Shown: positions 3,044 through 63,390, counted from the first letter of the stretch. The stretch: 64,000 nucleotides of DNA from an uncultured Clostridia bacterium (GCA_947630745.1 CANRIT010000005.1:2403-66402); one strand, 5' to 3'. A program made the numbers and translations. Notes: generated by a model not told the origin, from the sequence alone.

Positions 3044-3242
3044 TATACAATATATAGTGGCACTATTCACCAAAATACCCCATTTGTACTTATAAATAAA
3101 TCCAAAATTTTGCCCAAAACCGATAAAAACTTCAAAATAATTCCGCCTTAAAATTCTATATATAGTCACTTTCCGCCCCACCAACACAATATACCCTTGT
3201 GTTATAGCACTGTAACATATACAATATGTAGTGTCCCTATTC
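3044..3242. repeat. 25-bp direct repeat pair (22/25 identical) in the ftsA upstream region
   Basis: 3044-3068 tatacaatatatagtggcactattc versus 3218-3242 tatacaatatgtagtgtccctattc. A weaker related motif, tatatagtcac, occurs at about 3148-3160. Confidence 0.6.
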
Positions 3243-3284: not shown

Positions 3285-5939
3285 TTAGTCGCCCGTACAT
3301 GTATATATATAATATTCATCATTAGACGAACAAGCAAAGGGTTCATTTTCGTCTTCTCGATATAAAAATTTATTAATATTTCTAGATCCAGCTGATTTTT
3401 TAACATAAATTTTGTTCCCAATTACAAGTTCATAATTATCTATAGCTATCGCACGAAATACTTCATTTCCCAATATAGTAATATTCCCCTTAAAGTTAAA
3501 TACTTTACTACCTAAACTTTTTACACTTGCTGGAATTGTTAACATATCAACTCTTTCTTGTCGTTCAATTACAAATGCCCCGCCCTTTATCCTTGTTGTA
3601 CCATCTTGAAGAGTAATTGTACTTTTATAACTTTCCAAACCACAAGCAATCAATTCATCATTATATCTATAATAGATAACCCCATCAATAGTTTCTATTT
3701 GACCTTTATCATTTTCGTCTGATAATACAACTGCAGCGTAACCATAAAGTCCATTATTTGTATCTTGTTTTAAATCTATTTGTGATTTGTTAATTACTTC
3801 AATAAGTTCATTGCAATCTGCAAACGCATTCGAACCTATGCTTTTTAAATTTTGATTTAAAGTCACGCTAGTTATACTGCTATGTTCAAACGCATCCTGA
3901 TTAATCTCTGTAGTTTTATCTGATAAAACGATCTCGGTTTTTTGCGGGTCTGCAAGTCCCGCAGCAATATAGTTGTCACCATCATCATAATAATAAATTC
4001 CGTCTTCTATTGTTAATTTGCTTTGAGTTTCATCGGAAATTACTTGCTTTGCGTACTTAGCAACGCTGCCGTTGTCATTATTTCCTGGCGTCAATTGCAA
4101 TTCAGATTTATTTACTACTTCTATTAATCGACCACAATTGTCAAAAGCATCACTTACAATTTTTTTAACATTTTTTGGTATAGTTACTTTTATAAACCCT
4201 GCAAATCTAAATGCCATATTGCCAATTGATTGTAAGTTGCAATCATCTTCCACATAAATACTTGTTAAATTATAACAATCGTAAAATGAGAAGTGTCCAA
4301 TTGATTCTACATTTTTACCTATCTTTACGCTAGTTATATCGTTATTATAATAGAAAGCATAATCATTAATTTTTGTAACATCGTCTGGGATTACTAAATC
4401 ACCTTTTACTTGTTGTCCATTTATGTATAAATCCACCCCATGAGGCCCAAACGATTGTTCAAGACTTACTTTATTATCCTTCATTATAGAAGATTCACAC
4501 CATTCTTTTAATGTTCCAGTATAATTAATTTTAGCTAAATCATAAAATGTACCAGTATGTTTACAATTTTTACCAAAAGTTAAACTTGTAATTTCATAAT
4601 ATGAAAATGCATTGTATTCAATTTCAGTTACTGGTAGACCCATGTACGTGTCTGGGATAATTAATTCTGTGGAATCCATGCCTTCCTTAAAGCCGGTTAC
4701 AATATAGCCATCATTTGTGTCATTCATTTTAAAGGTAAGATTTGTTTGGATTATTTCTTCAAAATCAATGGTCAAGTTGCCTTCTACTGTAAGATTAATT
4801 TCTTCACTTGGTTCAGTTTCTGAATAATCTTCGCCATTTATTTTAAAGGTTACTAGGTCGGCGTTATCGCTTAGGGTATAGGAGATTTTTAGTTCATCGC
4901 CATAATGAATTTCTGTTTGGGCGGTTATATCAGTGTAAGTTTCACCTTGTTTTAATTCTACTTTTACATGCGATTGGTCTTCAGCATCAATTGTTAATGT
5001 ATATTCGCGTGGGGATGATGTGAAGTCTGCACGGACATAGAGATTTGCAGTAATTGGAGTTGAGAAATCAAAATATTGTTTTTCTTCACCTATTTGTTGA
5101 TTATCTTGGTCAACTATAAGCCAGCCGGCAAAGGAAAATTGTTCTGCAACTGTAGATTCTTTTTGTGGGTTTTCTACTGTTATGCTATTATTGTATTGTA
5201 CAGATTGAGATGTTTGTTCCACTCCGTCAAAGTCAAAGAAGTGTACGATAAAGGTTTGGATTTGTTCTTCATAGTGAAGAGTAATGTCTTTATCTTCCGC
5301 TGTTTTGTTATCTGCCACAATTTTGTAGATTGGCAAACCAGCTTCTGTATATTCTTCAGTAAACTCAGCACCAGTTATTGAGAATGTGCTGTCATAACCA
5401 GTTTTTGTGGTTAATTTAACTGCAAATTTGTCGCCATGATGAAGTGGTTGAGTAGTGTCTAGTTTTTCACCAGATAGGTTTTGAATTTCGATATTGTCAA
5501 AATCTGTCGCATTTGTAAATACATAATTAATAATTATATATTTTAAGTATACAGTTGTGCCTTTTGTTATCTTAGTGTCAAGCGAAAGCAAATCTTCTAA
5601 GCCTTCGTCAGCATAGAAACCAGCAAAATAATAGCCATCCCTGTTTGGTGCTTGGATATCACCTATGGTTGAACCTTTTTTTAGTTTGAGTGTTTGGTTA
5701 GATGATAAATCTTCACCAACAGCATGGATTTCAACTTGGAAATCTTGATGATTGGTGTAATAAATTACTGCTGGAATGGTAAGCGTAGTGGCTGCGAGTA
5801 ATGCTGATGCAACTACTATTGCTACCTTTTTGCCAGTGTTCTTTTCTTTCTGCTCCTTTACTGGCTTGTTAAGCATTTGTTGTTCATTTGTTGTAAGATT
5901 TTTCTTTTGTCCGCCTATTGCGGTATTTTTGGTTGGCAT
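3285..5939 (-). CDS. Membrane-anchored surface protein with Listeria-Bacteroides-type repeats and BspA-type leucine-rich repeats
   Basis: 884 aa. Lys-rich N-terminus followed by one TM helix (VAIVVASALLAATTLTIPAVIYY, about nt 5757-5825). GYYFAGFY and FSFAGWL motifs. The C-terminal half (about 3300-4670) consists of I-P-x-x-V-x-x-I-G-x-x-A-F-x-x-C-x-x-L units (LRR_5-like). The N-terminal 130 aa are paralogous to the 3336-aa protein at 50495-60505. AAGGAG RBS. Confidence 0.85.
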   Translation of the reverse strand: MPTKNTAIGGQKKNLTTNEQQMLNKPVKEQKEKNTGKKVAIVVASALLAATTLTIPAVIYYTNHQDFQVEIHAVGEDLSSNQTLKLKKGSTIGDIQAPNRDGYYFAGFYADEGLEDLLSLDTKITKGTTVYLKYIIINYVFTNATDFDNIEIQNLSGEKLDTTQPLHHGDKFAVKLTTKTGYDSTFSITGAEFTEEYTEAGLPIYKIVADNKTAEDKDITLHYEEQIQTFIVHFFDFDGVEQTSQSVQYNNSITVENPQKESTVAEQFSFAGWLIVDQDNQQIGEEKQYFDFSTPITANLYVRADFTSSPREYTLTIDAEDQSHVKVELKQGETYTDITAQTEIHYGDELKISYTLSDNADLVTFKINGEDYSETEPSEEINLTVEGNLTIDFEEIIQTNLTFKMNDTNDGYIVTGFKEGMDSTELIIPDTYMGLPVTEIEYNAFSYYEITSLTFGKNCKHTGTFYDLAKINYTGTLKEWCESSIMKDNKVSLEQSFGPHGVDLYINGQQVKGDLVIPDDVTKINDYAFYYNNDITSVKIGKNVESIGHFSFYDCYNLTSIYVEDDCNLQSIGNMAFRFAGFIKVTIPKNVKKIVSDAFDNCGRLIEVVNKSELQLTPGNNDNGSVAKYAKQVISDETQSKLTIEDGIYYYDDGDNYIAAGLADPQKTEIVLSDKTTEINQDAFEHSSITSVTLNQNLKSIGSNAFADCNELIEVINKSQIDLKQDTNNGLYGYAAVVLSDENDKGQIETIDGVIYYRYNDELIACGLESYKSTITLQDGTTRIKGGAFVIERQERVDMLTIPASVKSLGSKVFNFKGNITILGNEVFRAIAIDNYELVIGNKIYVKKSAGSRNINKFLYREDENEPFACSSNDEYYIYTCTGD

Positions 5940-10863: not shown

Positions 10864-11856
10864 TTACAAAAGGTAAAAAATAATTGTTATTACGCTTGTT
10901 ATTACGGTTATTGTGCTGTAAAGGTAAACAATTTTTGGCTCGGACAAGTTGCTTAGTTGCAAATGATGGTGAAAGGGCGCCATTTTAAACAGCCGCTTGT
11001 GTTTTAGCTTAAACACCGCAACTTGCAAAATAACCGATATTGCGCTAAACACAAAGCAAAAGCCCAAAATTGGGATTATTAATGGCTGGCCAACAAGGCA
11101 AGCGGAAGATGCGATATATCCGCCCAAGCAAAGCGAGCCAACATCCCCCATAAAAATTGACGCCTTGCTTGTGTTGAAAAATAAAAACCCCATAATTGCG
11201 CCAATAAACAGCATGTTAAGTTGATTGATGTTGTATAGGTTTGTTATGGCTTGTCCGGTTTCGCCCGCAAGGTAGAGTTTGTTTGACACAAGCGCACAGA
11301 TGATTGAAAACGCCACAAGGTAGACAATTGTAACCACGCCCGCAAGCGCATCCAACCCATCGGTTAAATTTACGCTGTTTGTGCAAGCGATAACCACAAA
11401 AATAACAAGCGGGATAACAAAAAATTTTAGGTCGATTGTTTTGTAAGTAAACGGAACAAACACTTTGCCGCCAACTGTTAAAAAGATAAAAATTGCAAAC
11501 ACAAGCGCAATACCAAACTGACCAATAATTTTTTGATATGGGCGCAAACCTAGGTTTTGCTTGTACTTGATTTTTAAAAAATCGTCCATAAAACCAAGCA
11601 CGCCCAAAAAGGCTGCAACTAGATATGCAGTAAACCACTGCCAATTAAACTTGATAAAAATTAGTGCTAGTGGTAGTGTAGATAGTATAAATAATACCCC
11701 ACCCATAGTTGTTGTACCATTTTTGTCTTTGTGGTTTGTTACATAGTTAAGTATTGTTTGATTTACGCTTAGTTTGGTTAGCACCCGCTTGACTGCTGGC
11801 ATTAAGGCAGTTGACAAAACAAAACTTACAACAAATATAATTAACAGATTTATCAT
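10864..11856 (-). CDS. mraY: Phospho-N-acetylmuramoyl-pentapeptide transferase MraY
   Basis: 330 aa membrane protein with motifs GFMDDFLKI, NLTDGLDALAG, FMGDVGSL and APFHHHL. ATGA overlap with the murE stop. Confidence 0.95.
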   Translation of the reverse strand: MINLLIIFVVSFVLSTALMPAVKRVLTKLSVNQTILNYVTNHKDKNGTTTMGGVLFILSTLPLALIFIKFNWQWFTAYLVAAFLGVLGFMDDFLKIKYKQNLGLRPYQKIIGQFGIALVFAIFIFLTVGGKVFVPFTYKTIDLKFFVIPLVIFVVIACTNSVNLTDGLDALAGVVTIVYLVAFSIICALVSNKLYLAGETGQAITNLYNINQLNMLFIGAIMGFLFFNTSKASIFMGDVGSLCLGGYIASSACLVGQPLIIPILGFCFVFSAISVILQVAVFKLKHKRLFKMAPFHHHLQLSNLSEPKIVYLYSTITVITSVITIIFYLL

Positions 11857-13310
11857 AATTTTATTTTGCCTTTTAGTGAATATTTAAAATAGTTGTCCAC
11901 GCAATCGTAGTCGCTAAATGGATACTTTACCCCTTTAACCTCTTGATAACTTTCCGCCCCCTTGCCCAAAATTGCCACCACATCATTTGGTTTGGCAATG
12001 GTCAGCGCGTATTCAATTGCTGAACGCCTATCCGTTATGCGCACCATGTTTTTTGCCTCGTTGTCCTTTGTTATGTCGTCAATAATAAAGTCTGGATTTT
12101 CGTCACGCGGATTGTCGCTGGTCACAATCACATAATCGCTGTTTTTGCACGCAATCTGCCCCATTTCCGCCCGCTTGGTTTTGTCGCGATTCCCGCCGCA
12201 GCCAAACACGGTAATTATGTTTTTTACTGGCAGTTGTTTTAATGCGTTAAGCACGTTTTTTATCCCGTCTGGTGTGTGGGCGTAATCGATAAGCACATTA
12301 AAATCCGCATCAAGTTTAAGCATATTAAATCTGCCCGGAATGAATATTTGGTACGATTTTAATATCGACAAAATATCGATTATATCAATACCCAACTTAA
12401 CCAAGCACGCAATTGCGGTTAAGCAGTTGTAAACATTGTAGTCGCCCATCAAATTGGTGGAGCAAGCGTAGGTTTTTTGCTGGTATTCAAACTTAAACTC
12501 GCTGCCGCGTATGGTGTGAGTTATGTTCATCAGCCTAAAATCTGCGTCATGCCCGATTGTTGAAAGCGGAATTAAAGAATTTTTTACTAGTTCCTTACAA
12601 TTTGCTCCATCCATATTTAGCACGCCCGCTTTGGCATGGCGGGGAGAAAACAGACTATATTTGCATTTTATATAGTTTTCCATAGTGATAAAAAAATCTA
12701 GATGGTCTTTTGTTATGTTGGTTAGCGCCACCATGTCGAACATGATGTAGTCGATTTTGTTAAGTGCGATGGCGTGAGCGGAAATTTCCATTATGCAGTA
12801 TTCGCAGCCGTTATCGTCCATTTCGCGGATGAGTTTGTGCAAGACAATTGGGTCGGGAGTGGTAAGCATGGGCGGCAAAAGCAGATTACCAATGTATATC
12901 CCTTCTGTGCCAATAAGCCCTACTCTATGCCCAAGATTGGTTAAAACTTCGCGCAAAAGATAGCTTGTGGTGGTTTTGCCATTTGTGCCAGTTATGCCAA
13001 TAAATTTCATTTTGGTTTTGTAAGTGGAATAAAAAACTTGGCAAATATAGCTCATTGCCGTGCGGACATTTTCAACACATATCTGGGTAACGGGGATGTC
13101 TAAAAAGCGTTCAACCACCAAACAAACCGCGCCGTTTGACACACTTTCCGCAGCAAAATCGTGCCCATCGTAGCGCATACCCTTAATGGCGAAATAGATT
13201 GCACTGCTAACCTTTTGCTTGCTGTTGGTGGTAAGGCTGTCTATATCCACATCTTTGTAGTATTTTATGCCAATAAATTTCATGTTTGAAATAATGTCAT
13301 ACAATTTCAT
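11853..13310 (-). CDS. murE: UDP-MurNAc-tripeptide synthetase MurE (DNPR motif, probably meso-DAP adding)
   Basis: 485 aa. Motifs GITGTNGKTTTSYLL, GCGGNRDKTKR and TSDNPRDENP. GGGG RBS. Confidence 0.92.
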   Translation of the reverse strand: MKLYDIISNMKFIGIKYYKDVDIDSLTTNSKQKVSSAIYFAIKGMRYDGHDFAAESVSNGAVCLVVERFLDIPVTQICVENVRTAMSYICQVFYSTYKTKMKFIGITGTNGKTTTSYLLREVLTNLGHRVGLIGTEGIYIGNLLLPPMLTTPDPIVLHKLIREMDDNGCEYCIMEISAHAIALNKIDYIMFDMVALTNITKDHLDFFITMENYIKCKYSLFSPRHAKAGVLNMDGANCKELVKNSLIPLSTIGHDADFRLMNITHTIRGSEFKFEYQQKTYACSTNLMGDYNVYNCLTAIACLVKLGIDIIDILSILKSYQIFIPGRFNMLKLDADFNVLIDYAHTPDGIKNVLNALKQLPVKNIITVFGCGGNRDKTKRAEMGQIACKNSDYVIVTSDNPRDENPDFIIDDITKDNEAKNMVRITDRRSAIEYALTIAKPNDVVAILGKGAESYQEVKGVKYPFSDYDCVDNYFKYSLKGKIKL

Positions 13311-13466: not shown

Positions 13467-13560
13467 AACGGGCGGGGCTAAAGCGGGCAAACGTGTTGCC
13501 CGCTAGCTAGGGGCAGCGCCCCTAGCGGCAAACGCAGTTTGCCTTAGCCCCGCCCCCGTT
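13467..13560. repeat. GC-rich four-way-junction palindromic element, copy 1
   Basis: Outer stem gggcggggctaa (13470-13481) pairs with ttagccccgccc (13544-13555). It encloses three hairpins: 13483-13503 (8 bp), 13507-13525 (8 bp) and 13527-13543 (7 bp). Begins 8 nt after the ftsI stop. No U-tract on either strand. Confidence 0.85.
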
Positions 13561-13568
13561 TTGCCTAA

Positions 13569-15473
13569 TCATCCCGTTATAAGTTGAATAACCTCACCAA
13601 GATAAAGCATAGTCCCCGCTGGCGGAAGTTGCGCAATAATAATCTCTCCATCCGTATCGCACACAAATTCTAGCCCAATCGCTTTAAGTTCAGCCGCCGC
13701 TTCTTCAATTGTCTTACCCACCAAATTTGGCATTTCAATCGTTGGTTTAAGGGTAAGTTGACTTTCATCATCTGGCCTTATCGCCTTTGTTTCAAAAATC
13801 GCTTGCAAAATGCGCTGTCCAACCGGTTTTGCAACCACTCCACCATAATATGCTCCCGCGCTTGGCTCGTTTACACAGATTAAGATGATGTATTTTGGGT
13901 TATATGTTGGGTAAGTTCCCACAAAACTGGAAATATATTTTCCGCTGGCAATTTTTCCGTCAGCGCCATATTTTTGCGCCGTTCCCGTTTTTCCGCCGAC
14001 CGAATAGCCAGCCACAAAACTCATTTTGCCATCGCTGTTTACATTGTTAAATAGCAGATTGTTTATAGTTTCAATTGTGTCCGCTTTTAAATTTATATCG
14101 GTTTTTGCGTTTGAGTTTGCGTATAAGGTTTTTCCGTCAAAGGTTATTTTACTTAACAAATGTGGCACAAAATTCTGCCCGCCCGTAATTTTCCCGTACA
14201 CGGTTGCAAGTTGAAGTTGGGTAACCGCCACCGCGTGCCCAAAACCAATACGCGCCAAGTCCACTGTGCGCACCCCTTCTTTTGGCATAATAATTCCCGC
14301 GCTTTCGCTGTAAATATCCACCCCAGTTTTTTCGCCAAGTCCAAAATAGTTAAGGTATTGATAATATTTTTCCACTCCCAGCCTTAACGCCAAATTAACA
14401 AACACGCAGTTGCAGCTGTTTTTAAATGCTTCGCTAAGTGTTTGGCTGCCATGACCAATTGTGCGCCAACATTTTATTGTTTCGCCGTCAACCGTGGTTC
14501 GCCCGCCGCAATAAAACTGGTCGTCAACATCCACAAGCCCTTCGTTTAAAGCTGCGGCAAGGGTTACAAGTTTAAAGGTGCTGCCCGGTTCGTAAACATC
14601 CACAACCGACACATTTTTTGTTTGGTTTTGAAGTTTGGTTAGGTCATCGCGCGGCACGGCATTCAAGTCAAAATTGGGCAAAGTTGCCATCGCCTTAATT
14701 CCGCCAGTTTGCGCATCCAAAATTATCCCACTAACCGACAGTGCGTTGTTTTCGTTGTATGCGGTTAAAAGTTCGCGCTCCATTATCGACTGCATTTGAA
14801 CATCAATTGTGGTATGTAAATCCGCACCCGCCACGCTTGGCAGATAATAGCTTAGCGAATTATCTATCTCTTTGCCTTGCGCGTTGGTTTGAGTAAGGCT
14901 TTTACCGTCAATTCCTTTAAGGTATTTGTCGTAATAAAGTTCAAGCCCCGCCTGCCCGATGTTGTCAATTGTGCAATAGCCCAAAACTTGTGTTAAAAGG
15001 TTGGAATATGGGTAAACGCGCGCCACATTTTGGCTAAGATACACTCCCGCATACTCAGTAAGCGATAGTGCCAATTTTTCGTCCACCTGCATTTTTATAA
15101 GTATCTCGCTAAGGCTTTTGTTGGTTACCTTGCTGTAAACCTTGTTGTAATCCAAGTTTAGTTTGTCCGACAAAACAAGGGCAAGTTCGCTTGCGTTTTT
15201 AACATTTCGCGCGCGCACATAAACATCATAAGTGGTTATTGTGGTTGCCAAGCGCACCCCGTTTGCGTCCAAAATCTCGCCGCGTTTGCTTGAAAGGGGT
15301 AAATCTCTAAGCCACTCTTCTGCCGCCAACGCTTGAAGATGCCGCCCGTCAATTATTTGCAAATAGAATATGCGTGAAATTAGCGCCACAAAAATGGTTA
15401 AAACAATTAAAATTGTTGCAATAAATCGCCTTTCCAACGAATATATATTGTAAAAAGTTTTAAATTTCCGCAT
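13569..15473 (-). CDS. ftsI: Class B penicillin-binding protein (FtsI/PBP2B/SpoVD-like) with C-terminal PASTA domain
   Basis: 634 aa. N-terminal TM helix. Transpeptidase motifs STFK, S-C-N and KTGT. PASTA-like tail PNLVGKTIEEAAAELKAIGLEF. No SD; a TATAAT lies 4 nt before the ATG. Confidence 0.92.
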   Translation of the reverse strand: MRKFKTFYNIYSLERRFIATILIVLTIFVALISRIFYLQIIDGRHLQALAAEEWLRDLPLSSKRGEILDANGVRLATTITTYDVYVRARNVKNASELALVLSDKLNLDYNKVYSKVTNKSLSEILIKMQVDEKLALSLTEYAGVYLSQNVARVYPYSNLLTQVLGYCTIDNIGQAGLELYYDKYLKGIDGKSLTQTNAQGKEIDNSLSYYLPSVAGADLHTTIDVQMQSIMERELLTAYNENNALSVSGIILDAQTGGIKAMATLPNFDLNAVPRDDLTKLQNQTKNVSVVDVYEPGSTFKLVTLAAALNEGLVDVDDQFYCGGRTTVDGETIKCWRTIGHGSQTLSEAFKNSCNCVFVNLALRLGVEKYYQYLNYFGLGEKTGVDIYSESAGIIMPKEGVRTVDLARIGFGHAVAVTQLQLATVYGKITGGQNFVPHLLSKITFDGKTLYANSNAKTDINLKADTIETINNLLFNNVNSDGKMSFVAGYSVGGKTGTAQKYGADGKIASGKYISSFVGTYPTYNPKYIILICVNEPSAGAYYGGVVAKPVGQRILQAIFETKAIRPDDESQLTLKPTIEMPNLVGKTIEEAAAELKAIGLEFVCDTDGEIIIAQLPPAGTMLYLGEVIQLITG

Positions 15474-15562: not shown

Positions 15563-16129
15563 TTAGCCAAACAGCGATTTAAACAAAATTGTTATGCGGT
15601 CAAAGAAAGTTAAGCCGTTTTCATCATCACCATAATCGCGCGGGGTGTTAAGGGTAATGTAACCGTCTAGCACATTTTCTTCCGCCGTGTCATTATTTTG
15701 ATTGGCTAGATATGTGTTGCCCTGCTGCATGGTGTAGGTTTGGCTGTTTATATCCCTATTTTTGCTTATAAGTGTGGCTGTGTTAACCCCAATAAGGCCA
15801 AGCAGCAACACGCAAACAATTGAATACACCACAGTAAAAAGTTTTACGCGATGCTTAACAAACGCACGCTTTTCATCTTCTTTACGCGTAAAAATTTTGT
15901 CAACTGGCTTTTCGTTTTGCTTAACTTGCTGCAAACCTTGCGGGGTAGAATCTATGTCAGTTTTAATATCCTTTTCGCTTTTAAGCAAATCTTCCAAATT
16001 TGGCAAATCATCAAAACGAGTTTCTGTTTTTGGGTCAATTTGCACATCGCGTTTGACTTCTGTTTGAGTGTTTGCGCTGGTTTGTGCCTGTGGTTGAAGG
16101 TCGGCAAATCTTTCTTGCTCGTCGTCCAT
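15563..16129 (-). CDS. Single-pass membrane protein at the ftsL position (function unproven)
   Basis: 188 aa. Acidic/Lys-rich N-terminal 95 aa, one TM helix (LFTVVYSIVCVLLLGLIGVNTATLI) and a ~65-aa C-terminal tail. AGGAGG RBS. Assignment rests on position between rsmH and ftsI only. Confidence 0.6.
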   Translation of the reverse strand: MDDEQERFADLQPQAQTSANTQTEVKRDVQIDPKTETRFDDLPNLEDLLKSEKDIKTDIDSTPQGLQQVKQNEKPVDKIFTRKEDEKRAFVKHRVKLFTVVYSIVCVLLLGLIGVNTATLISKNRDINSQTYTMQQGNTYLANQNNDTAEENVLDGYITLNTPRDYGDDENGLTFFDRITILFKSLFG

Positions 16130-16185: not shown

Positions 16186-17115
16186 CTACAATTTTTCCGC
16201 TATCCTAAGTTTTGCGCTTACCGAACGCGAATTTGCTTGTTGTTCTTGTTCGGACGGCACAATTGGATGCTTGGTTATAAGTTTTATATCCGCTTTATGC
16301 CCACACACGCACACTGGCAGATGTGGCGGGCAAATGCAATCGGTTGAGTGGATTTTAAAGGCTGTTTTTACAATTCTATCTTCTAGCGGATGAAATGATA
16401 TTATACATAGTCTACCACATTTTTTTAAATAAAACAACATTTTTTCAATGCAATTTTTTAAATCGTTAAGTTCGTTGTTAACTTCAATGCGGATGGCTTG
16501 AAACACTTTGTTTGGCAAACTGGTTTTTTGCTGAAATTTGGGCGGATAACTGTCTATAACAATATCGCGCAGTTCAAAAGTTGTTTCAATTGGCTTTGTT
16601 GCGCGCTGTTTTACAATTTTGCGGGCAATTTGGTTGGCGTTTTTTTCTTCACCATATGTAAACATTATGCGCGCCAAATCCGCTTGCGAATATGTGTTTA
16701 CAACCGTGTAAGCGTCCAATTTTTGGCTTTTATCCATGCGCATATCAAGGCGGGCATTGTGCATAAAACTAAACCCCCGCTCGCCGTTATCCAGCTGATA
16801 ACTGCTTACGCCAAGGTCAGCCAAAATGCCGTCCACTTTATCGGGCGAATGTTGTTTTATTATTTCTTCTATATTTGCAAAATTGTCGTTTACAAAAATT
16901 ATTTTGTTAAGGTGGTCGCGCAGCACTTGCTTAGCTTTGTTAAGCGCGTCCGTGTCCTTATCAATGCAGATAAGTTTGCCAGTGGTAAGCCGTTTGGCAA
17001 TTCCAAGCGAATGCCCGCCCCCACCCGTTGTGCAGTCCACATAAACACCATCTGGGCGAATGTTAAGCCCAGCAATGCTTTCTTCTTTTAAAACTGAAAC
17101 GTGTTTAAATTCCAT
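16186..17115 (-). CDS. rsmH: 16S rRNA (cytosine1402-N4)-methyltransferase RsmH (MraW)
   Basis: 309 aa. Opens MEFKHVSVLKEE; SAM motif YVDCTTGGGGHS; C-terminal NSRSVSAKLR. Confidence 0.95.
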   Translation of the reverse strand: MEFKHVSVLKEESIAGLNIRPDGVYVDCTTGGGGHSLGIAKRLTTGKLICIDKDTDALNKAKQVLRDHLNKIIFVNDNFANIEEIIKQHSPDKVDGILADLGVSSYQLDNGERGFSFMHNARLDMRMDKSQKLDAYTVVNTYSQADLARIMFTYGEEKNANQIARKIVKQRATKPIETTFELRDIVIDSYPPKFQQKTSLPNKVFQAIRIEVNNELNDLKNCIEKMLFYLKKCGRLCIISFHPLEDRIVKTAFKIHSTDCICPPHLPVCVCGHKADIKLITKHPIVPSEQEQQANSRSVSAKLRIAEKL

Positions 17116-17129
17116 ACTCTCCTAAAATT

Positions 17130-17825
17130 TTACTCTATTTCCACCAGCGTGTTTTTAACCGCATCGCAACTTGTTAAATAGTATTTTATGCCATTTATTT
17201 CGTTATACAGCATTTTGGGGTTGATATAGCCGTGCAAGTGGGCAAACACCACTTTGTAAACGCCGTTTTCTTTTAGAATGCGGGTGTATTCGCTTGGCTC
17301 GATTTTGTTGTTAAAAGGCGGATAATGAGTAATAAATATAATCTTTTCGTTGTTGGTTTGCAGCTTTTTTGCCGCTTGAAGGGACAGTTCTAGGCGGATG
17401 ACTTCGCGGGCGTAGAGTTTGCGATTTTCTTCCGTATCTTGCTTGCCTTGCGGAATAAGCCAGCCGCGATTGCCACAAAAAATGTAGTCACCAATTTTTA
17501 TTGCATCATTTTGAAGGGCATAGCAGTTTTCGGGCAGAATTTCACGCACCTTACTAAGGCTGCTCCACCAATAGTCATGATTGCCGCGGATAATAATTTT
17601 TGTGCCGGGCAGGTCTTTTATAAAATCAAAATCTGGAACAACTTGGTTAAGTTTCATCGCCCAACTGTAATCGCCCGCCAATATAACAACATCTTCTGGG
17701 CTTACTTTTTGTTTCCAATCCGCTGCCACCTTTGTTTCATGACCATGCCAAACCGGACCGAAAATATCCATGGGTTTGCTGTTGTTGATGTCCAAATGTA
17801 AATCGCTTATTGAGTAGATTTTCAA
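17130..17825 (-). CDS. Calcineurin-like metallophosphoesterase (TTG start)
   Basis: 231 aa. Motifs SDLHLD, GDYSW, GNHDYWW, THYPP and AHLHG. AAGGAG lies 7 nt before the TTG. First gene of the rsmH operon, where mraZ is usually found. Confidence 0.85.
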   Translation of the reverse strand: MKIYSISDLHLDINNSKPMDIFGPVWHGHETKVAADWKQKVSPEDVVILAGDYSWAMKLNQVVPDFDFIKDLPGTKIIIRGNHDYWWSSLSKVREILPENCYALQNDAIKIGDYIFCGNRGWLIPQGKQDTEENRKLYAREVIRLELSLQAAKKLQTNNEKIIFITHYPPFNNKIEPSEYTRILKENGVYKVVFAHLHGYINPKMLYNEINGIKYYLTSCDAVKNTLVEIE

Positions 17826-17843: not shown

Positions 17844-17872
17844 ATTTTACCTTAATTTAAACAAAATGTCAA
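17844..17872 (-). promoter_or_regulatory. Sigma-A type promoter of the metallophosphoesterase-rsmH (dcw) operon
   Basis: Minus strand reads TTGACA (17867-17872), a 17-nt spacer, then TAAAAT (17844-17849). Confidence 0.65.
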
Positions 17873-17959
17873 AAGTTTATTGATTGTTGTTGATTTTTGT
17901 TGGCTTTGTGCTTAAATTTACCTTAATTGTAGCTGTTTTTTGTTGAAAGCTGGGCTTTG

Positions 17960-18054
17960 ACGGGGGCGGGGCTAGAATGCGCGGAGCGCATTGGGCGGCG
18001 GCACGCCGCCGCCCCGCACAAAACGCGCAGCGTTTTGTGCCTAGCCCCGCCCGT
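17960..18054. repeat. GC-rich four-way-junction palindromic element, copy 2
   Basis: Outer stem gggcggggctag (17964-17975) pairs with ctagccccgccc (18041-18052). It encloses hairpins 17976-17992 (7 bp), 17993-18014 (9 bp) and 18016-18040 (10-11 bp). An extra hairpin gtgtgtgc/gcacacac follows at 18053-18070. Confidence 0.85.
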
Positions 18055-18127
18055 GTGTGCTTGCACACACAAAAGCGCAGTAACCTTTTTTTACAGTGCA
18101 TCATACAAATTTATAGGAGGAAAAAAG

Positions 18128-18793
18128 ATGTCTTTTTACACAGATGCAAGGCCGGGCATTTATCCTGGGCAAACCACCAATGCTATGAATGGCCTATGCG
18201 AAAGAATTTGCATTCAAACCACCAAAGTGTTTGATGCGTGCATGTTACAAGCACAAATTGAGGATTATGCTCTTACACTAACCAATTTCAACCCAGCAGA
18301 TCCCGCCACTCCACTAACCTTTGTAAGTGGAAATTCAACCACCGGTCCAGCAACGGTAACCGGCCTAACCATTACGCGATTTGATGACCGACCAAACTTT
18401 GCGCGCGTGCAAGCAACAATCAACATTCCAGTTGTTGTAACCTACACTGACGCAAACAATGTTGCTGGCACAGCAACTGGCACAATTGCTGTCAATCAAG
18501 ATGTGATTATGTATGTGCCACAGCCATCGCTTACCCCAATTGATGTTATTGCATTTGGCAGCGCGGTAATTTCGCAAGGTACATACAATCCTACTACTGG
18601 CGGCTTTACAATAAGCGCGTGCGTAACCGCAATACTTAAAGTGGTTGCCGTGGTTGATGTGCTTGTGCCAAGTTATGGCTATTGCCCAATTCCGCCATGC
18701 ACTCCTTACACTGGAGAAGAAGCTTGCCCAGGTGTGTTTGAAATGCCACTGTATCCAACCGCAGTCAGCCCACAATCCACCAACGCAAGATAG
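18128..18793 (+). CDS. Hypothetical Thr/Pro/Val-rich, Cys-containing protein (beta-rich; possible structural protein)
   Basis: 221 aa from the ATG at 18128, with AGGAGG (18115-18120) 7 nt upstream. The ORF-track start at 17957 runs through the GC-rich repeat and is unlikely. N-terminal LCERICIQTTKVFDAC; C-terminal YGYCPIPPCTPYTGEEACPG. Visibly more GC-rich than its neighbours. Confidence 0.75.
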   Translation: MSFYTDARPGIYPGQTTNAMNGLCERICIQTTKVFDACMLQAQIEDYALTLTNFNPADPATPLTFVSGNSTTGPATVTGLTITRFDDRPNFARVQATINIPVVVTYTDANNVAGTATGTIAVNQDVIMYVPQPSLTPIDVIAFGSAVISQGTYNPTTGGFTISACVTAILKVVAVVDVLVPSYGYCPIPPCTPYTGEEACPGVFEMPLYPTAVSPQSTNAR

Positions 18794-18794
18794 C

Positions 18795-18823
18795 AAAAAA
18801 ACTCACAAATGTGAGTTTTTTTT
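18795..18823. terminator. Bidirectional rho-independent terminator between the 18128 gene and plsX
   Basis: aaaaaaactcac aaat gtgagttttttt: a 6-7 bp stem flanked by an A-run and a T-run. Confidence 0.8.
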
Positions 18824-18830: not shown

Positions 18831-19826
18831 TTACAAATTTTCTACTGCGCTGGTAACTTTTTGGATTAGTTGATTTTTTGCAAGTGTGTATGCTTGATTT
18901 ATTGCGGTGGCAATGCTGTCTGCCTTGCTGTTGCCGTGGCATTTAATAACAATTTTGCTCACCCCCAAAAGTGGCGCGCCGCCAATTTTTTTGTGGTCGT
19001 ATTTATTTTTAAGTTTTTTAAGTTTGCCTTTTAAGAAAAGTGCGCCAATTTTTGCTTTGAATGAAGATGATGCAGCTGATTTAATTTCACCAAACAAAAT
19101 TTCCGATGCGCCTTCAATGGATTTTAGGCAGACATTGCCCGAAAAACCATCGCACACCACAACATCAACATTGCCGCGCAACACATCGCGTGCTTCAACA
19201 TTGCCAACAAAATTTAGTTTGGAAGATTTTAAAAGTTTAAATGCTTCCTTAACCGTTTCGCTGCCCTTTTCTTCTTCAACACCAATGTTTAACAAGCCGA
19301 TTTTTGGATTTTTTATGCCCATAGCCTTCATATACTCGCTGCCCATAATGCCAAAATGCAACAAATTTTCTGGCTTGCAATCCGCATTTGCGCCCGAATC
19401 CAACAACATAACCCCGCGGTCGTTAACCGTTGGCAAAATTGGGGCAAGCGCAGGACGAGAAATGTTTTTTATGCGCCCAAGTTTAAGCACCGCGCCCGTT
19501 AAAGTTGCGCCCGTGCTGCCCGCACCCACCATGGCAACCGCATCTTCGTTTTCACGCAAATAATCGTAAGCCACAACTATGCTTGAAGTTTTTTTGGTGC
19601 GGATGGCAACAGTTGGCACTTCGTCCATACTGATAACATCAGGCGCATGAACAATTTCCAACCTATCGCTTACAAACACTAAACTTGACAAAATTTCGGT
19701 TATCTTATCTTTGTCGCCCACCAAAACCAATTTTAGGTCTGGATTTTGTTGCAACGCCTTGGCTGCACCAGCGACAATTTCTTGTGGAGCATAATCCCCA
19801 CCAAACGCATCAACTACGATTTTCAA
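18831..19826 (-). CDS. plsX: Phosphate acyltransferase PlsX (TTG start preferred)
   Basis: Opens MKIVVDAFGGDYAPQEIV when started at the TTG (19824-19826), which has AGGAGG (19833-19838) 6 nt upstream. The track ATG at 19850 lies upstream of this RBS. Confidence 0.92.
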   Translation of the reverse strand: MKIVVDAFGGDYAPQEIVAGAAKALQQNPDLKLVLVGDKDKITEILSSLVFVSDRLEIVHAPDVISMDEVPTVAIRTKKTSSIVVAYDYLRENEDAVAMVGAGSTGATLTGAVLKLGRIKNISRPALAPILPTVNDRGVMLLDSGANADCKPENLLHFGIMGSEYMKAMGIKNPKIGLLNIGVEEEKGSETVKEAFKLLKSSKLNFVGNVEARDVLRGNVDVVVCDGFSGNVCLKSIEGASEILFGEIKSAASSSFKAKIGALFLKGKLKKLKNKYDHKKIGGAPLLGVSKIVIKCHGNSKADSIATAINQAYTLAKNQLIQKVTSAVENL

Positions 19827-19944
19827 AATAATCCTCCTAAATACACACATATTCTACCAAATTTTTCCGCAATTGTAAAATAATTTTAACAAGTTTTGCA
19901 CTAAAAATAAAAGCAAACTGAACTTATACATTTTCATAATTAAT

Positions 19945-23271: not shown

Positions 23272-23293
23272 AAAAAAGCACAACTAAGTGCTT
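23272..23293 (-). terminator. Terminator of HA-sigma gene 1
   Basis: aagcac pairs with gtgctt (loop aactaa) and overlaps the stop. T-run on the minus strand. Confidence 0.65.
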
Positions 23294-25403
23294 AAATCAT
23301 CCATTCATCTTTTTGAAGATGTTGTTTTAGTTTTTCTAAAATTTTTTGCAAAACTTTTTCCACTTTTTGTGGTGTGGTGTTAAATTTTTCAGCAAGCTGG
23401 TTTGCTGAGTATGCCGTGCCACTTTTGCTAAAGCCAAAATGCAAACAAATTAACTTATATTCATCGCGCGTTAAAATTTGCTTTGCTCGCTTTAACAATT
23501 GCTCATTGAACGCGCTATCTTCAACCAACTCGTCCGGGCGATATCTGTCGTCCGGAATTGTTTCTTCAACTGTGATGTCATCAAAACCTTGGACTTCTTC
23601 TTGCAAACTTGTAATTTGATTTGCTTTGATTATAAAATGCTTGATTTCATAGTTTATGGTTTTGCCAACATATGCTTTTAATTTAGTTTCTATATTTGTG
23701 GTTGTGTTATCTAATGCGGTGTTTAAAGCATCATAGCCCTGGCCAATCAAATCAGACACATTTGAAGAATTTTTATAACTAAACGCTATTTTATGCACCA
23801 GCGGCATATACTTTTGTAAGTAATCATTTCTTGCGGTTAAGTCGCCATTTAGCATGCGCTTTATCATTGGCTCATTTGGCTTGTCTTTATAATAATCTTG
23901 TGTGTTGAAAACAAAATCTAATTCGTTTAATTTTTCCATTTGCGCATCGGTTAATTGAAGTCTGCGATTGCGAATGTTTCTTACAAAAAAACCTAATTCG
24001 TAATTATCAACAACATAATCATACTCAACAAAGCAACTATTAAATTGCTGCTTATATTCAACCAATTTCTTGTAGAATATTTCAAAATCGAATTTTGCAA
24101 GTTTTGCACTAACCTTTACATTCCAATTAAACCCGATTTTATTTAATTTTGCCCTCTGCTCGTCCGACAAAATTATACCACAATCACGAATAGTTCTTAC
24201 TTTTTGACCCAGTTTGTAGCCGTCAGGGCAAACATATGTTTGTTTAACATTAACATCTTTATATTCTTCTTTATATTCTTCCAAATGTCTATAAAATACA
24301 TCAAATTTAAATGTTCCGCCCTCGCGTTTAGAATCCCAATTAAACTCTATTTTATTTAATACTTCTTTTTGCTCGTTTGTCAATTTTGTGCGGCCCAATC
24401 GAATGTTTTTCATTTTTACTCCAAGTATATATCCGTCTGGACAAACATATCTAATTGGAATACGCGCATCGCTATATGTTTTTCTATATTCAATCAAATG
24501 TTTACGAAATTCATTAAAATCAAAAATTTTTGCATTCCATACAAAATCCATTTCATTTAACATTGATTTTTGTTGCTCGGTCAACCTTATTCCGCCTTCG
24601 CGAATGGTCATAATTTTTTGACCCAGTTTGTATCCATCTGGGCAAACATACGCTTGTCTAACATCAATATTTTTATTAACTTTTTTATATTCTTGCAAAT
24701 AATTATAAAATTCATCAAAGTTGAATCTTACAATTGGTTGTACATCCCAAATAAAGCCTAATTCAACCAATTTTGCTTTTTGCTGGTTGGTTAGTTTTAT
24801 CACGCCTTGACGAATTCTTTTAAATTTGTAACCGAGATTATATCCGTCTTTACAAATATATGATGATGCAGCATATCCATTATTGTTGACTTTTATGTAT
24901 TCAAGCAAACGATTATAAAAATCATCAAAATCAAATTTAATATATGGCCTTCCATCATAAGCAAAGCCCAGTTCTTCCAATTTTGCTTTTTGTTGGTTTG
25001 TTAAACTTATTATGCCAATACGAATATTTTTTATTTTTTGACCAAGATTGTATCCGTCCTGACAAATATAGGATATTGAAATATCAACATCTTTGTTAAC
25101 TTTTTTATATTCAAGCAAACGATTATAAAATTCATCAAAATCAAATTTAATAAATGACCTTGAATCACAAACAAGTCCAACTTCTTGCAATTTTGCTTTT
25201 TGCTGTTCGGTTAGTTTTATGCGGCCCGAACGAATGCGCCTTATTTTACCCCCAAGAGTATATCCATTAGGACAGACATATGATGTTGAAATGTTAACAT
25301 TTTTAAACTCATCTTTGTAGTTTTGTAAATAGGAAAGAAACTCTTCAAAAATGAAGGGCTGGCGTATTATGGCTTTTTGAATGAGATTTTCCTTTTCCGA
25401 CAT
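23292..25403 (-). CDS. Sigma-70-family-like protein with 7 N-terminal helicase-associated (HA) domain repeats
   Basis: 703 aa. The last ~202 aa (about nt 23295-23900) contain a region-2-like segment ARNDYLQKYMPLVHKIAFSY...DLIGQGYDALNTALD and a region-4 HTH LTRDEYKLICLHFGF...YSANQLAEKFNTTPQKVEKVLQKILEKLK. Upstream are seven ~67-aa repeats of the form FDFDEFY..L.EYK....Y.C.DGY.LG.K...IR.G...L...Q...L.ELGF.W. Confidence 0.85.
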   Translation of the reverse strand: MSEKENLIQKAIIRQPFIFEEFLSYLQNYKDEFKNVNISTSYVCPNGYTLGGKIRRIRSGRIKLTEQQKAKLQEVGLVCDSRSFIKFDFDEFYNRLLEYKKVNKDVDISISYICQDGYNLGQKIKNIRIGIISLTNQQKAKLEELGFAYDGRPYIKFDFDDFYNRLLEYIKVNNNGYAASSYICKDGYNLGYKFKRIRQGVIKLTNQQKAKLVELGFIWDVQPIVRFNFDEFYNYLQEYKKVNKNIDVRQAYVCPDGYKLGQKIMTIREGGIRLTEQQKSMLNEMDFVWNAKIFDFNEFRKHLIEYRKTYSDARIPIRYVCPDGYILGVKMKNIRLGRTKLTNEQKEVLNKIEFNWDSKREGGTFKFDVFYRHLEEYKEEYKDVNVKQTYVCPDGYKLGQKVRTIRDCGIILSDEQRAKLNKIGFNWNVKVSAKLAKFDFEIFYKKLVEYKQQFNSCFVEYDYVVDNYELGFFVRNIRNRRLQLTDAQMEKLNELDFVFNTQDYYKDKPNEPMIKRMLNGDLTARNDYLQKYMPLVHKIAFSYKNSSNVSDLIGQGYDALNTALDNTTTNIETKLKAYVGKTINYEIKHFIIKANQITSLQEEVQGFDDITVEETIPDDRYRPDELVEDSAFNEQLLKRAKQILTRDEYKLICLHFGFSKSGTAYSANQLAEKFNTTPQKVEKVLQKILEKLKQHLQKDEWMI

Positions 25404-25465: not shown

Positions 25466-25488
25466 AAAAAAGCACAACTAGGTGCTTT
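25466..25488 (-). terminator. Terminator of HA-sigma gene 2
   Basis: aaagcac pairs with gtgcttt (loop aactag). T-run on the minus strand. Confidence 0.65.
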
Positions 25489-27362
25489 TAAATTAACCAC
25501 TCATCTTTTTGGAGATTTGATTTTAGTTTTTCTAAAATTTTTTGCAAATGTTTTTCAATTTTTTGTGGTGTGGTGTTAAATTTTTTAGCAAGTTGGTCGA
25601 TTGTGTACATTGTGCCGTGTTTATTAAAACCAAAATACAAACACATCAATTTAAACTCGTCATTGCTTAAAATTTGCCTTGCCTTCTTTTGCAATTGCTC
25701 GCTAAATGCCCTATCTTCCACCAGCCAATCTGGACGATAAGTGTTGTCTTCAATTGTATCTTGAAACACCACACCTTCACAGCCAAGCACATCGTCTTGC
25801 ATGCTTTTGATACTTAGAATTTGTTTTATATGATTTAGTATTAGCCCCCTAATTGTGTTTATTATATATCGCTTTTGACCAGTTTCGTCAATATTTTTTA
25901 AATTATCCAACGCAAGGTCCAGCCCGTCATAGCCAACGCCAAGCAAATCCGAATAATTTGTAAGTTGCCAATAATTTGCTGCCACCATGTTGACCATTGG
26001 CAAATATCTATTAAGGTAATCATTTCTGGCAGTAATATCGCCGTTTAGCATGCGCTTTATCATAGGCTCATCTGGCTTGTCTTTATATAAATCCTGCGTG
26101 TTAAACACAAAGCCCAAACCAACAAGCTGTTCAATTTGATTTTCAGTTAATCTTATCCTTCTGTTGCGAATGTTTCTTACATAAAAGCCCAATTCGTAGT
26201 TGCTTAAAACATAGTCAAATTCGACAAAACAATTGCCATTTTGCGCTTTATATTCAACCAATTGGTTATAAAAATGTTTAAAATTGAAATTTTTAATCTT
26301 GGTCGCGCTTGACACATTCCAAACAAAATCAAGCTCATCCAATTTTGCCTTTTGCTGGTCGTTTATTTTAATATGTCTGGTGCGAATGCCAGCCATTTTT
26401 TCGCCAAGTTTATATCCGTTTTCACACACATAGCGGTTAGGAACGATATTAGTTTTTCTTTTTTGCAAATATTCAAGCAAATTTTGATAGAATTCATCAA
26501 AATTGAACGACCTTGCATCCCAAATAAAGCCCATCTCACCCAATTTGGCTTTTTGTTGGTCGGTTAACCTTATTACGCCAGCGCGAATGTTTGTGATTTT
26601 TTGACCTAGTTTATAATTATCTTTACATACATAACTTTGCCCAACATTAACATCGTTGTGTGTTTCTTTATATTTGACTAGATGCTGATAGAATGTGTCA
26701 AAATCAAAAACCCTTTTTGCGTTCCAAACAAAATTTAATTCATTCAACTTTGCTTTTTGTTGTTCGGTCAACTTTATCCCGCCCGAGCGTATTCTGCACA
26801 CTTTTTGACCAAGTTTGTAGCCGTCATCGCATATATACAACTGTTTAACATTAACATCACCGCATTTTTGTTGGTATTTAAGCAAATACTGATAGAATTT
26901 ATCAAAATCAAATGGCAAAACTCTCCAAACAAAACTAATTTCGTCTAATCTTGCCCTCTGCTGCGAGGATAACTTTAAGTTGCCCGCACGAACATTGCAT
27001 ATTGTGTCCCCCAGCCGGTAGCCGTCCGAACAGCGATATGACCTTTTAATATTAAGGTCGCCATGTCTAAGTTTGTAGTTAAGCAAACGGTTGTAAAATT
27101 TTTCAAAATCAAAAACTCTTTTTGCATTCCAAACAAAACCAATTTCGTTTAGTTTTGCAATTTGCTGGTTGTTTAGATTTATCTCGCCCGAACGAATATT
27201 GTTAATCTTTTGCCCTAGCTTATACCCGTCTTTGCAGATGTAGTCAGTTGGAATGTTGGCGCTTTTATTCACGGCTTTATACTTATTGAAATGTGAAACA
27301 AACTCTTCAAATTTGAAGCGCAGATGAGTTTTTGCCTTTTTAACTAGGTTTTCCCTTTCCAT
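25488..27362 (-). CDS. Sigma-70-family-like protein with 6 N-terminal HA domain repeats
   Basis: 624 aa. Same build as 23292-25403. C-terminal ARNDYLNRYLPMVNMVAANY...DLLGVGYDGLDLALD and LSNDEFKLMCLYFGF...YTIDQLAKKFNTTPQKIEKHLQKILEKLK. Confidence 0.85.
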   Translation of the reverse strand: MERENLVKKAKTHLRFKFEEFVSHFNKYKAVNKSANIPTDYICKDGYKLGQKINNIRSGEINLNNQQIAKLNEIGFVWNAKRVFDFEKFYNRLLNYKLRHGDLNIKRSYRCSDGYRLGDTICNVRAGNLKLSSQQRARLDEISFVWRVLPFDFDKFYQYLLKYQQKCGDVNVKQLYICDDGYKLGQKVCRIRSGGIKLTEQQKAKLNELNFVWNAKRVFDFDTFYQHLVKYKETHNDVNVGQSYVCKDNYKLGQKITNIRAGVIRLTDQQKAKLGEMGFIWDARSFNFDEFYQNLLEYLQKRKTNIVPNRYVCENGYKLGEKMAGIRTRHIKINDQQKAKLDELDFVWNVSSATKIKNFNFKHFYNQLVEYKAQNGNCFVEFDYVLSNYELGFYVRNIRNRRIRLTENQIEQLVGLGFVFNTQDLYKDKPDEPMIKRMLNGDITARNDYLNRYLPMVNMVAANYWQLTNYSDLLGVGYDGLDLALDNLKNIDETGQKRYIINTIRGLILNHIKQILSIKSMQDDVLGCEGVVFQDTIEDNTYRPDWLVEDRAFSEQLQKKARQILSNDEFKLMCLYFGFNKHGTMYTIDQLAKKFNTTPQKIEKHLQKILEKLKSNLQKDEWLI

Positions 27363-44399: not shown

Positions 44400-44423
44400 A
44401 AAAAAAGCATATAAAATGCTTTT
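44400..44423 (-). terminator. Terminator of HA-sigma gene 4
   Basis: aaaagcat (44403-44410) pairs with atgctttt (44416-44423). T-run on the minus strand. Confidence 0.65.
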
Positions 44424-62182: not shown

Positions 62183-62203
62183 TACCCTGCGGGGTATTTT
62201 TTT
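62182..62203 (+). terminator. Rho-independent terminator
   Basis: ataccc (62182-62187) pairs with gggtat (62192-62197), loop tgcg, then T7. Confidence 0.8.
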
Positions 62204-62237
62204 CAAATTTATTTTAGATTAAAAATTTATTAAACAT

Positions 62238-62382
62238 TATACCCCCGCCCCTATTAAAATTTAAATTATATTGTTGTAATTTTAAATTAATTAAAATACC
62301 CCGCTCCCCTATAAAACAATTTGGATTTAATATAAAATTTTAGTTTAAAATTAATTTGAATTGTTATACCCCACCACACTAT
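62238..62382. repeat. Three spaced C-rich 17-18-mers (ATACCCC-N6-CTAT) in an AT-rich spacer
   Basis: 62238-62254 tatacccccgcccctat; 62296-62312 ataccccgctcccctat; 62365-62382 tataccccaccacactat. Confidence 0.55.
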
Positions 62383-62632
62383 TTATTAGTCTAAATTAAA
62401 TACTTAAAATTAATATTATAGGTTTACAATTATTACTATATTGTGGGTGTAAATTAATATAAAAAGACTAGATAATAGCTTAATACATTAATAGAAAAAT
62501 TAATTCAGTTAGTTTTAAATTATTAAATTTTTACAAAAAATGTTAGAAAATTTATTAAAAAACACAAAAAATTAATAAAAAAACTACAAAATTTAATTTT
62601 ATTTTTAAAATTTCGATTTTTAGTTTAATAAG

Positions 62633-62661: not shown

Positions 62662-62677
62662 TTAAGTGTGAGGTTAT

Positions 62678-63389: not shown

Positions 63390-63390
63390 T

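Follow-up and report, generated by a model that had tools for sequence, protein, structure and literature searches.

Between the divergent promoters of a cell-division gene unit and of a gene for a 221-aa protein, the genome of an uncultured Clostridia bacterium carries a GC-rich element (copy 2) whose two ends form a helix that encloses three perfect hairpins. The stems, unlike the loops, are largely unchanged in the closest relative available. A second copy (copy 1) with a matching closing helix lies at the far boundary of the same unit, within the 64,000-nt stretch of DNA analysed here (the window; GCA_947630745.1, CANRIT010000005.1:2403-66402). Our preferred reading, to which we assign a probability of roughly 0.4, is a palindromic DNA repeat that is restricted to one lineage and passed on vertically, akin to REPs, REPINs and MITEs and possessing sequence-specific terminal inverted repeats.

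Two copies of a self-closing four-way junction

The first-pass annotation, made from the window's sequence alone, had described copy 2 as an outer stem enclosing three hairpins with a fourth directly behind, and as the second element of its kind. Folding with ViennaRNA reproduced this structure to the base. The outer arms are exact complements, each interior hairpin is perfect, and one unpaired C (18015) separates hairpins 2 and 3 (Table 1). Folded as RNA, copy 2 has a minimum free energy (MFE) of -84.4 kcal/mol (z = -8.7), and none of 200 shuffled sequences was equally stable. The four-way junction is both the MFE and the centroid fold and accounts for 70% of the RNA ensemble. As single-stranded DNA, each strand adopts the same fold at approximately -49 kcal/mol (z of about -8.4). 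The element is approximately 80% GC in a window of approximately 38% GC, and the window's GC maximum (up to 80% in a 60-nt window) falls at 17942-18067. A scan of the 64 kb for perfect hairpins with stems of 7 bp or more gave 11 GC-rich ones, seven of them inside the two elements.

Table 1. Positions of the elements, neighbouring genes and other features in the window.
Feature	Position	Strand	Remarks
Copy 2 element	17960-18054	.	includes flanking ACG/CGT, which extends the terminal inverted repeat; model R1, 113.9 bits
Copy 2 closing helix, 12 bp	17964-17975 / 18041-18052		GGGCGGGGCTAG and CTAGCCCCGCCC; from the fold, pairs kept in all three sequences
Copy 2 hairpin 1, 7 bp	17976-17992		AATGCGC-GGA-GCGCATT
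Copy 2 hairpin 2, 10 bp	17993-18014		GGGCGGCGGC-AC-GCCGCCGCCC
Copy 2 hairpin 3, 11 bp	18016-18040		GCACAAAACGC-GCA-GCGTTTTGTGC
Accessory perfect hairpin	18053-18070	.	GTGTGTGC-TT-GCACACAC; abuts copy 2
Small 5-bp hairpin	17946-17958	.	AAAGC-TGG-GCTTT; just 5' of copy 2; weak, possibly chance
Copy 1 element	13467-13560	.	model R1, 60.9 bits (minus strand), 45.3 bits (plus strand); between ftsI stop (13569) and murE start (13310), both minus strand
Copy 1 closing helix	13470-13481 / 13544-13555		element core 13470-13555
Copy 1 hairpins	13482-13504, 13506-13526, 13527-13543		sequences unrelated to copy 2 hairpins
Promoter-like site	17844-17872	-	TTGACA-17-TAAAAT; phosphoesterase-rsmH-ftsL-ftsI unit; kept in L017 (4894-4866)
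Bipartite promoter-like motif	18080-18109	+	GTAACC (18080-18085)-N18-TACAAA (18104-18109); 221-aa gene
murE	11853-13310	-	Pfam
ftsI-like PBP with PASTA domain	13569-15473	-	Pfam
ftsL-like	15563-16129	-	Pfam
rsmH	16186-17115	-	Pfam
Metallophosphoesterase	17130-17825	-	Pfam
221-aa protein	18128-18793	+	neighbour, not part of the element; RBS AGGAGG (18115-18120)
Bidirectional terminator	18795-18822		AAAAAAACTCAC-AAAT-GTGAGTTTTTTT; AT-rich hairpin with A and T runs
plsX	18831-19850	-	Pfam
Boxes in 62183-62677	62238-62254, 62296-62313, 62366-62383		TATACCCCCGCCCCTAT; AATACCCCGCTCCCCTAT; TATACCCCACCACACTAT

The claim of a second element also held: copy 1, whose RNA fold reaches -72 kcal/mol, has the closing helix of copy 2 apart from a single base pair (CTAA/TTAG vs CTAG/CTAG). 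The terminal inverted repeat can be written ACG-G(3-5)-CGGGGCTA(G/A), about 16 nt per end, and is present at both ends of three complete copies; as a pattern, the ends read ACGGG(GG)CGGGGCTAR...YTAGCCCCGCCC. In both window copies, ACG...CGT borders the G run, which is 3 or 5 long, on its outer side at either end. The exact 12-mer of the closing helix does not recur in the window, and scans of the window for GC islands and motifs revealed no third copy.

The interiors of the two copies cannot be aligned except for a CAAAC/GTTTG motif in one hairpin. The motif GCAAAC...GTTTGC is common to the hairpin adjacent to the right arm in each copy, suggesting that the copies share one orientation. The covariance model instead prefers the opposite strand for copy 1 on the basis of the G-run lengths; because the two indications disagree, the relative orientation is ambiguous. 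The mirrored runs reported earlier (G5/C3 in copy 2, G3/C5 in copy 1) are present as described but unstable, since the copy 2 orthologue of the sister species introduced below is G3/C5-like. Run length, differing between the two species' orthologues of one element, was thus discarded as an orientation marker.

The two copies bracket a four-gene unit, phosphoesterase-rsmH-ftsL-ftsI, with copy 2 located 5' of the promoter that serves this unit and copy 1 immediately behind the stop codon of ftsI. The unit begins with the metallophosphoesterase gene, and mraZ was not seen 5' of rsmH. A Pfam search of non-overlapping ORFs of at least 80 aa in the window detected neither a transposase nor a RAYT gene.

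Constraint on the stems and distribution among relatives

The closest relative available (L017, GCA_947632645.1; 97% identity in the 221-aa protein) has an element at each of the two corresponding positions. The check proposed earlier, of the same intergenic region in related genomes, therefore found a copy 2 orthologue in position; an identical upstream region was also present in L016, from another sample. Genes flanking the element are 79-83% identical between the window and L017 and differ at 44-49% of four-fold sites (about 47%; 32% in the codon-biased 221-aa gene), while intergenic DNA is unalignable outside the element and the shared promoter. Against this background, only 8 of the 80 stem bases of copy 2 differ, within 5 of its 40 pairs: one G-C pair has become a G-T wobble, one terminal pair is lost, an indel has removed another, and the remaining two pairs are GC/CG swaps on both sides. 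At the neutral rate, stem changes this rare would have a probability of approximately 1e-12 per base and 4e-6 per pair. The loops have changed almost completely from the window to L017 (GGA to CGCATG, AC to TT, GCA to TGC). With stem changes so far below four-fold divergence, the stems must be under constraint, and copy 2 is not the neutral insertion that had been left open as an outcome: 35 of 40 pairs are unchanged in L017, and all positions but one are paired, despite the synonymous divergence. The rate of stem evolution is lower than that of synonymous sites by a factor of about four to five, beside saturated loops, an unusually clean contrast.

When the three complete copies were aligned to the structural model, all 118 pair cells were paired, a figure somewhat inflated because the alignment had been fitted to the structure. 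Changes on both sides were found in 21 of the 40 pairs, and 10 of the 12 closing-helix pairs were invariant. None of 500 shuffles reached these pairing values, and with slid partners pairing fell to about 40-47%. RNAalifold returned the same structure from the same alignment, with 20 compensated pairs. In these sequences, stem stability and closing-helix sequence are conserved, whereas the loops and the junction are not.

The accessory hairpin 3' of copy 2 is not found in L017, which indicates that it was gained in the window's lineage. The L017 contig CANRQB010000004.1 (60.9 kb) ends inside the copy 1 orthologue (L017 1-82), of which the contig still shows the right arm, hairpin 3, a hairpin 2 of different sequence and a hairpin 1 shortened to 4 bp. 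This orthologue looks partly decayed compared with the tightly conserved copy 2. The position of the contig end suggests that such palindromes may break short-read assemblies, and draft genomes may consequently under-report them. The loop of hairpin 3 is GCA in both window copies (13527-13543, 18016-18040) and TGC, the reverse complement, in both L017 copies (52-68, 4978-5002). Flips of this kind are seen in DNA palindromes. A switch of replication strand was rejected as its source, GC skew having the same sign in both species.

Further relatives, at 83-88% protein identity (L018/19, L020/21, L022-24 and L162), retain the 221-aa gene, its RBS and an AT-rich, unstructured spacer of 114-251 nt; neither a GC island nor a match to the model was found in these spacers. 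L022 preserves the window's gene order, yet its ftsI-murE spacer is A-rich and unstructured, with no hairpin. The contigs of L163 and of a third lineage, L159, are too short to cover the element sites. Since both copies occupy the same places in L017 and none was found in the further relatives, the insertions predate the split of the two species and represent a lineage-specific gain at two sites, with conservation as judged from one sister genome. The known loci number two, at the same places in both species, within approximately 95 kb (the 64-kb window and about 31 kb of the sister genome). A covariance model search of about 168 kb of related loci produced no further copies. Scans for the terminal repeat and its spacer in genome, metagenome and viral contig collections, which did not return this lineage, yielded unrelated palindromes, mostly from GC-rich genomes, and none of these folded into the three-hairpin layout in AT-rich flanks. 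BLAST of the element against phage and plasmid collections returned nothing relevant.

One scan match can be recorded in its own right. On a metagenome contig of 32% GC (Ga0182027_10001073, L062), GGGCGGGGCTAG...CTAGCCCCG surrounds an AT-rich interior of 62 nt at 3133-3220, directly 3' of ORFs resembling an HNH endonuclease and a tyrosine recombinase, with more solo GGCGGGGCTA motifs at 9751 and 12999. These 12-nt ends are probably coincidental and unrelated to the element.

The pattern of gain and turnover could also be explained by a functionless relic of an extinct insertion, rendered palindromic by hairpin-templated (quasipalindrome) correction together with GC-biased repair. Its absence from relatives of unchanged gene context, the turnover of hairpins with the flipped loop of hairpin 3, the partial decay of copy 1 in L017 and the lack of a visible partner gene in the window would all agree with such an origin. 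We nevertheless consider it improbable: correction alone predicts change in about 47% of pairs rather than the 5 of 40 observed (P of about 4e-6), the closing helix is identical in paralogues with no common interior sequence, and a GC content of about 80% has been kept in a 38% GC genome. The element offers a compact setting in which to ask what maintains perfect palindromes: selection, hairpin-templated correction or biased repair.

Promoters, transcripts and the neighbouring gene

Copy 2 had been placed between divergent promoters, and the minus-strand site of the four-gene unit was indeed found, on one side of the element. On the other side, contrary to the earlier statement that no convincing promoter lies between the element and the RBS, a bipartite motif begins 10 nt 3' of the last hairpin. 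In the form (T/G)T(A/C)AC(A/C)-N18-TAnnAn, this motif stops 18-29 nt short of the ATG in seven of seven lineages, five of which lack the element (in L163 the first base of the motif is lost at the contig end). Its spacing and distance to the ATG are the same in L017, where it lies approximately 70 nt from the element. As the whole spacer of L020 is only 114 nt, the motif must belong to the 221-aa gene's own promoter. It resembles the sigma-70 consensus only modestly, and transcription is predicted to start very near the RBS. The comparison argues that the main promoter of the 18128 gene is downstream of the element. Weak plus-strand hexamers also occur 5' of copy 2 (TTGATT-17-TAAATT, 17891-17919; GTCAAA-17-TAATAT in L017), at the level expected by chance in AT-rich DNA (about one per 550 nt). 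Thus, copy 2 probably resides outside both mRNAs, between two core promoters.

These observations tell against the proposal that copy 2 forms part of a 5' leader of about 170 nt and acts as a cis-regulatory RNA, since a promoter-like motif stands 3' of the element, unpaired bases are not conserved and no Rfam family was matched. At the gathering score, Rfam returned nothing for either copy; under relaxed settings the best models for both were microRNA precursors at 14-23 bits against thresholds of 40-130, which is chance level. The companion suggestion, a possible cruciform or insulator acting as DNA, agrees better with how symmetric the element is. Elements of this type can be mistaken for riboswitch-like leaders.

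A broader version of the RNA reading places copy 2 in a long leader from a distal promoter and copy 1 in the dcw mRNA, with the structure giving protection from 5' or 3' exonucleases, providing an RNase III site or attenuating read-through. Both RNA folds are very stable (-84 and -72 kcal/mol), and copy 1 falls within the operon transcript, between two cistrons, where REP-like stabilisers act. The weak hexamers 5' of copy 2 could supply a distal promoter, the L017 start being predicted at the base of the closing helix; the only wobble in that helix is a G-U on the plus strand, and constrained stems with free loops suit such a role. Difficulties arise from the position-conserved motif 3' of the element and from the location of copy 2 upstream of the minus-strand promoter as well. 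This reading also requires that the two copies function on opposite strands of transcript, or else that copy 1 is antisense. In addition, G-U pairs occupy just 2 of the 118 pair cells, which is unusual if one RNA strand is selected, and relatives without the element keep the gene and its RBS, L022 also being without an ftsI-murE hairpin. On balance, a cis-acting RNA is unlikely.

Far less credible is a separate gene for a small RNA, about 100 nt long, in which the closing helix would serve as terminator. The sequence CC-R-TTTT(T)GC follows both copy 1 and the L017 copy 2 on the plus strand, and in L017 the element is preceded, at a distance of 7 nt, by a weak promoter-like site. However, there is no -10 element 5' of copy 1 and no T run after the window's copy 2, and the loops are unconstrained. 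A scan for intrinsic terminators found nothing at copy 1, copy 2 or the L017 elements, where a U tract is lacking, while the window's clear terminator is an AT-rich hairpin with a T run. We regard this explanation as highly improbable. A terminator reading of the element was likewise set aside for want of a T tract, and a tRNA-like reading was rejected because ARAGORN made no call there. The only tRNAs found in the window by ARAGORN and Rfam are tRNA-Leu and tRNA-Cys, at 63302-63464. The terminator at 18795-18822, the clearest in the window, separates the convergent 221-aa gene and plsX.

The 18128 gene had been called GC-shifted. A shift is present, and one of +9 to +12 points is found in all relatives; it reflects amino-acid composition, GC3 (0.378) being at genome level, and for the same reason an origin by horizontal transfer was dismissed. 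A coding reading of 17957-18127 on the plus strand was also rejected, all homologues starting at MSFYT behind the RBS. A mechanical ORF list extends the 221-aa gene in frame through the element (278 aa, TTG start). The extension is spurious, arising because GC-rich sequence contains few stops, and automatic annotation could be misled by it.

All 1645 homologues of the 221-aa protein come from uncultured Clostridia, with identities of 76-97% across the 120 best clusters of these matches; where named, they belong to 'Clostridia/Clostridiales bacterium' or to 'Candidatus Onthoplasma', a member of the Christensenellales. Onthoplasma MAGs have been described as having reduced genomes of 0.8-0.9 Mb (PMC12306168). 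No match to the protein sequence was found in Pfam, NCBIfam or PDB. Its AlphaFold model contains a confident all-beta core (residues 27-180) of long strands, with low-confidence Cys-rich termini, and a Foldseek search with this model gave no PDB match. The surroundings vary between lineages: in L017 an extra acetyltransferase gene (3594-4133) lies between the metallophosphoesterase gene and rsmH and a different gene replaces plsX 3' of the 221-aa gene, while the cluster is split after ftsL in L018 and L020.

A proposed palindromic DNA repeat and its likeness to known systems

In the reading that we prefer, the common ancestor of two Christensenellales-like species would have acquired the element, which came to occupy both boundaries of the phosphoesterase-rsmH-ftsL-ftsI unit; an origin as a mobile unit is implied. 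The element would act as folded DNA, either single-stranded or in negatively supercoiled duplex, with the interior hairpins joining the conserved ends into one 12-bp helix. That helix would be the site recognised by a trans-acting protein, whereas the three GC-rich hairpins would need only to pair. A boundary or supercoil-buffering role for the host may be envisaged.

Several observations favour DNA over RNA as the presumed active form. Pairing is symmetric, so that either strand folds equally well, G-U pairs are scarce, the loop of hairpin 3 is flipped between the species, and perfect hairpins are gained or replaced locally, as at 18053-18070 and in hairpin 2 of copy 1, which differs in L017. 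Furthermore, copy 2 lies beyond both core transcription units. On the side of RNA stand the transcription of copy 1 within its operon, the plus-strand G-U in the closing helix and possible read-through from the weak promoters; RNA-level roles taken together are somewhat unlikely. The preferred reading also carries difficulties of its own. Extrusion of a GC-rich, 89-bp multi-hairpin structure from duplex DNA is energetically demanding, and a selfish repeat alone cannot explain the constraint on copy 2, so that one must also invoke some benefit to the host or a mechanism of self-correction.

REPINs and MITEs share a layout of conserved inverted ends around a variable interior (PMC3337134, PMC3116915). 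Like REPINs or REP-BIMEs, the REP doublets mobilised by RAYTs, the element is about 100 nt long and extragenic, with conserved inverted ends and a less conserved interior (PMC3337134, PMC3116915, PMC3733652). It also resembles REPINs in single-strand folding, in vertical inheritance and in occupying the same sites across species, and copy 1, like many REPs, lies between two genes of one operon. Unlike those of REPINs, however, its ends are not themselves hairpins or palindromes but pair together around three hairpins, producing a four-way junction where a REPIN forms one long hairpin. The unpaired GTAG/CGTC tag of REPs (PMC3733652) is missing as well: the ACG/CGT ends of the element are paired, and CGTC occurs at one of six ends. 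Tagged REPs reside mainly in Proteobacteria (PMC3733652), whereas the host here belongs to a low-GC, reduced-genome lineage of Clostridia. Two loci were seen in about 95 kb, and no RAYT gene in the 64-kb window. REPs number tens to hundreds of copies per genome, and the gene for the RAYT, a Y1 transposase, is flanked by the repeats.

MITEs such as Correia, ERIC, RUP and bcr1 are likewise short, non-coding, intergenic and foldable, with terminal inverted repeats of 12-16 nt, and their presence or absence varies between related species as it does here. In contrast to MITEs, the element has no target-site duplication (flanks are TTTG/GTGT for copy 2, GCA/TTT for copy 1 and TGGC/CCAT in L017), its interiors differ completely between copies and consist of palindromes that are perfect and GC-rich, its ends are not known from any parent IS and its copy number is apparently low. 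Lacking a tag, palindromic ends, a target-site duplication and a common interior, the element was filed as a member of neither the REPIN nor the MITE family. Organelle GC palindromes offer a further comparison, through GC-rich perfect hairpins in AT-rich intergenic DNA, local accretion of hairpins and loop flips, but those elements are abundant and usually consist of single or double hairpins. To our knowledge, a conserved helix that closes off three hairpins is not a feature of any of them. The set considered comprised yeast mitochondrial GC clusters, double-hairpin elements and the repetitive hairpin-forming elements of sponges (PMC2800124). Finally, copy 1, which is very stable and terminates a transcription unit in position, is reminiscent of intercistronic stem-loop stabilisers, terminators and hairpin clusters (PMC8355165), from which the element differs in having no U tract and in the position of copy 2 upstream of both promoters.

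If the preferred reading is correct, structured repeats of the REPIN/MITE kind would extend to uncultured, reduced-genome gut Clostridia, and conserved ends closing a three-hairpin junction would be a layout not described for such repeats. If only these two copies exist, both flanking the rsmH-ftsL-ftsI unit, a dedicated boundary function for genes of cell division would come into view, which would be of greater interest still.

Such a function is the substance of a host DNA boundary element that was never mobile, consisting of paired sites for a DNA- or junction-binding protein or of cruciform supercoil sinks. In each of the two species the copies lie on either side of one and the same transcription unit, and the closing-helix sequence is invariant. 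Negative supercoiling builds up between divergent promoters under the twin-domain model; copy 2 has just this position, and its AT-rich flanks favour extrusion. Conversely, the distances from copy 2 to the promoters shift by 50-60 nt between the species, which means that copy 2 is no precisely placed operator, copy 1 seems to be decaying in L017, and L022 has the same operon layout without the element. Moreover, bracketing could arise by chance in approximately 14% of cases by our own rough estimate (two random sites at most 4.5 kb apart in 64 kb). A boundary element of purely host origin therefore appears rather unlikely. Quite improbable, in turn, is the more elaborate idea that the self-closing four-way junction is an undescribed module, in which a dedicated and possibly junction-binding protein would read the invariant helix, the arms would be free to vary provided they remain stable, and selection in reduced-genome Christensenellales would retain the module to mark both boundaries of the first cell-division unit as a DNA switch driven by supercoiling or replication, being neither mobile repeat nor RNA.

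Other features of the window were recorded alongside the palindromic repeat. A non-coding region of approximately 500 nt and 25% GC (62183-62677) contains three similar boxes spaced 58-70 nt apart, the first of which is one base off the element's C-rich arm (TACCCCCGCCCC vs TAGCCCCGCCCC); the boxes may be solo arms, or else binding sites that form a set unrelated to the element. Four paralogous minus-strand genes (23292-25403, 25488-27362, 42848-44347 and 44422-46089), constituting most of the window's direct-repeat families, are built of tandem units of about 200-210 nt encoding HA (helicase-associated, PF03457) domains, and some distant homologues are fused to helicase or HNH domains. A single ORF of 3336 aa spans 10 kb of the minus strand at 50495-60505.
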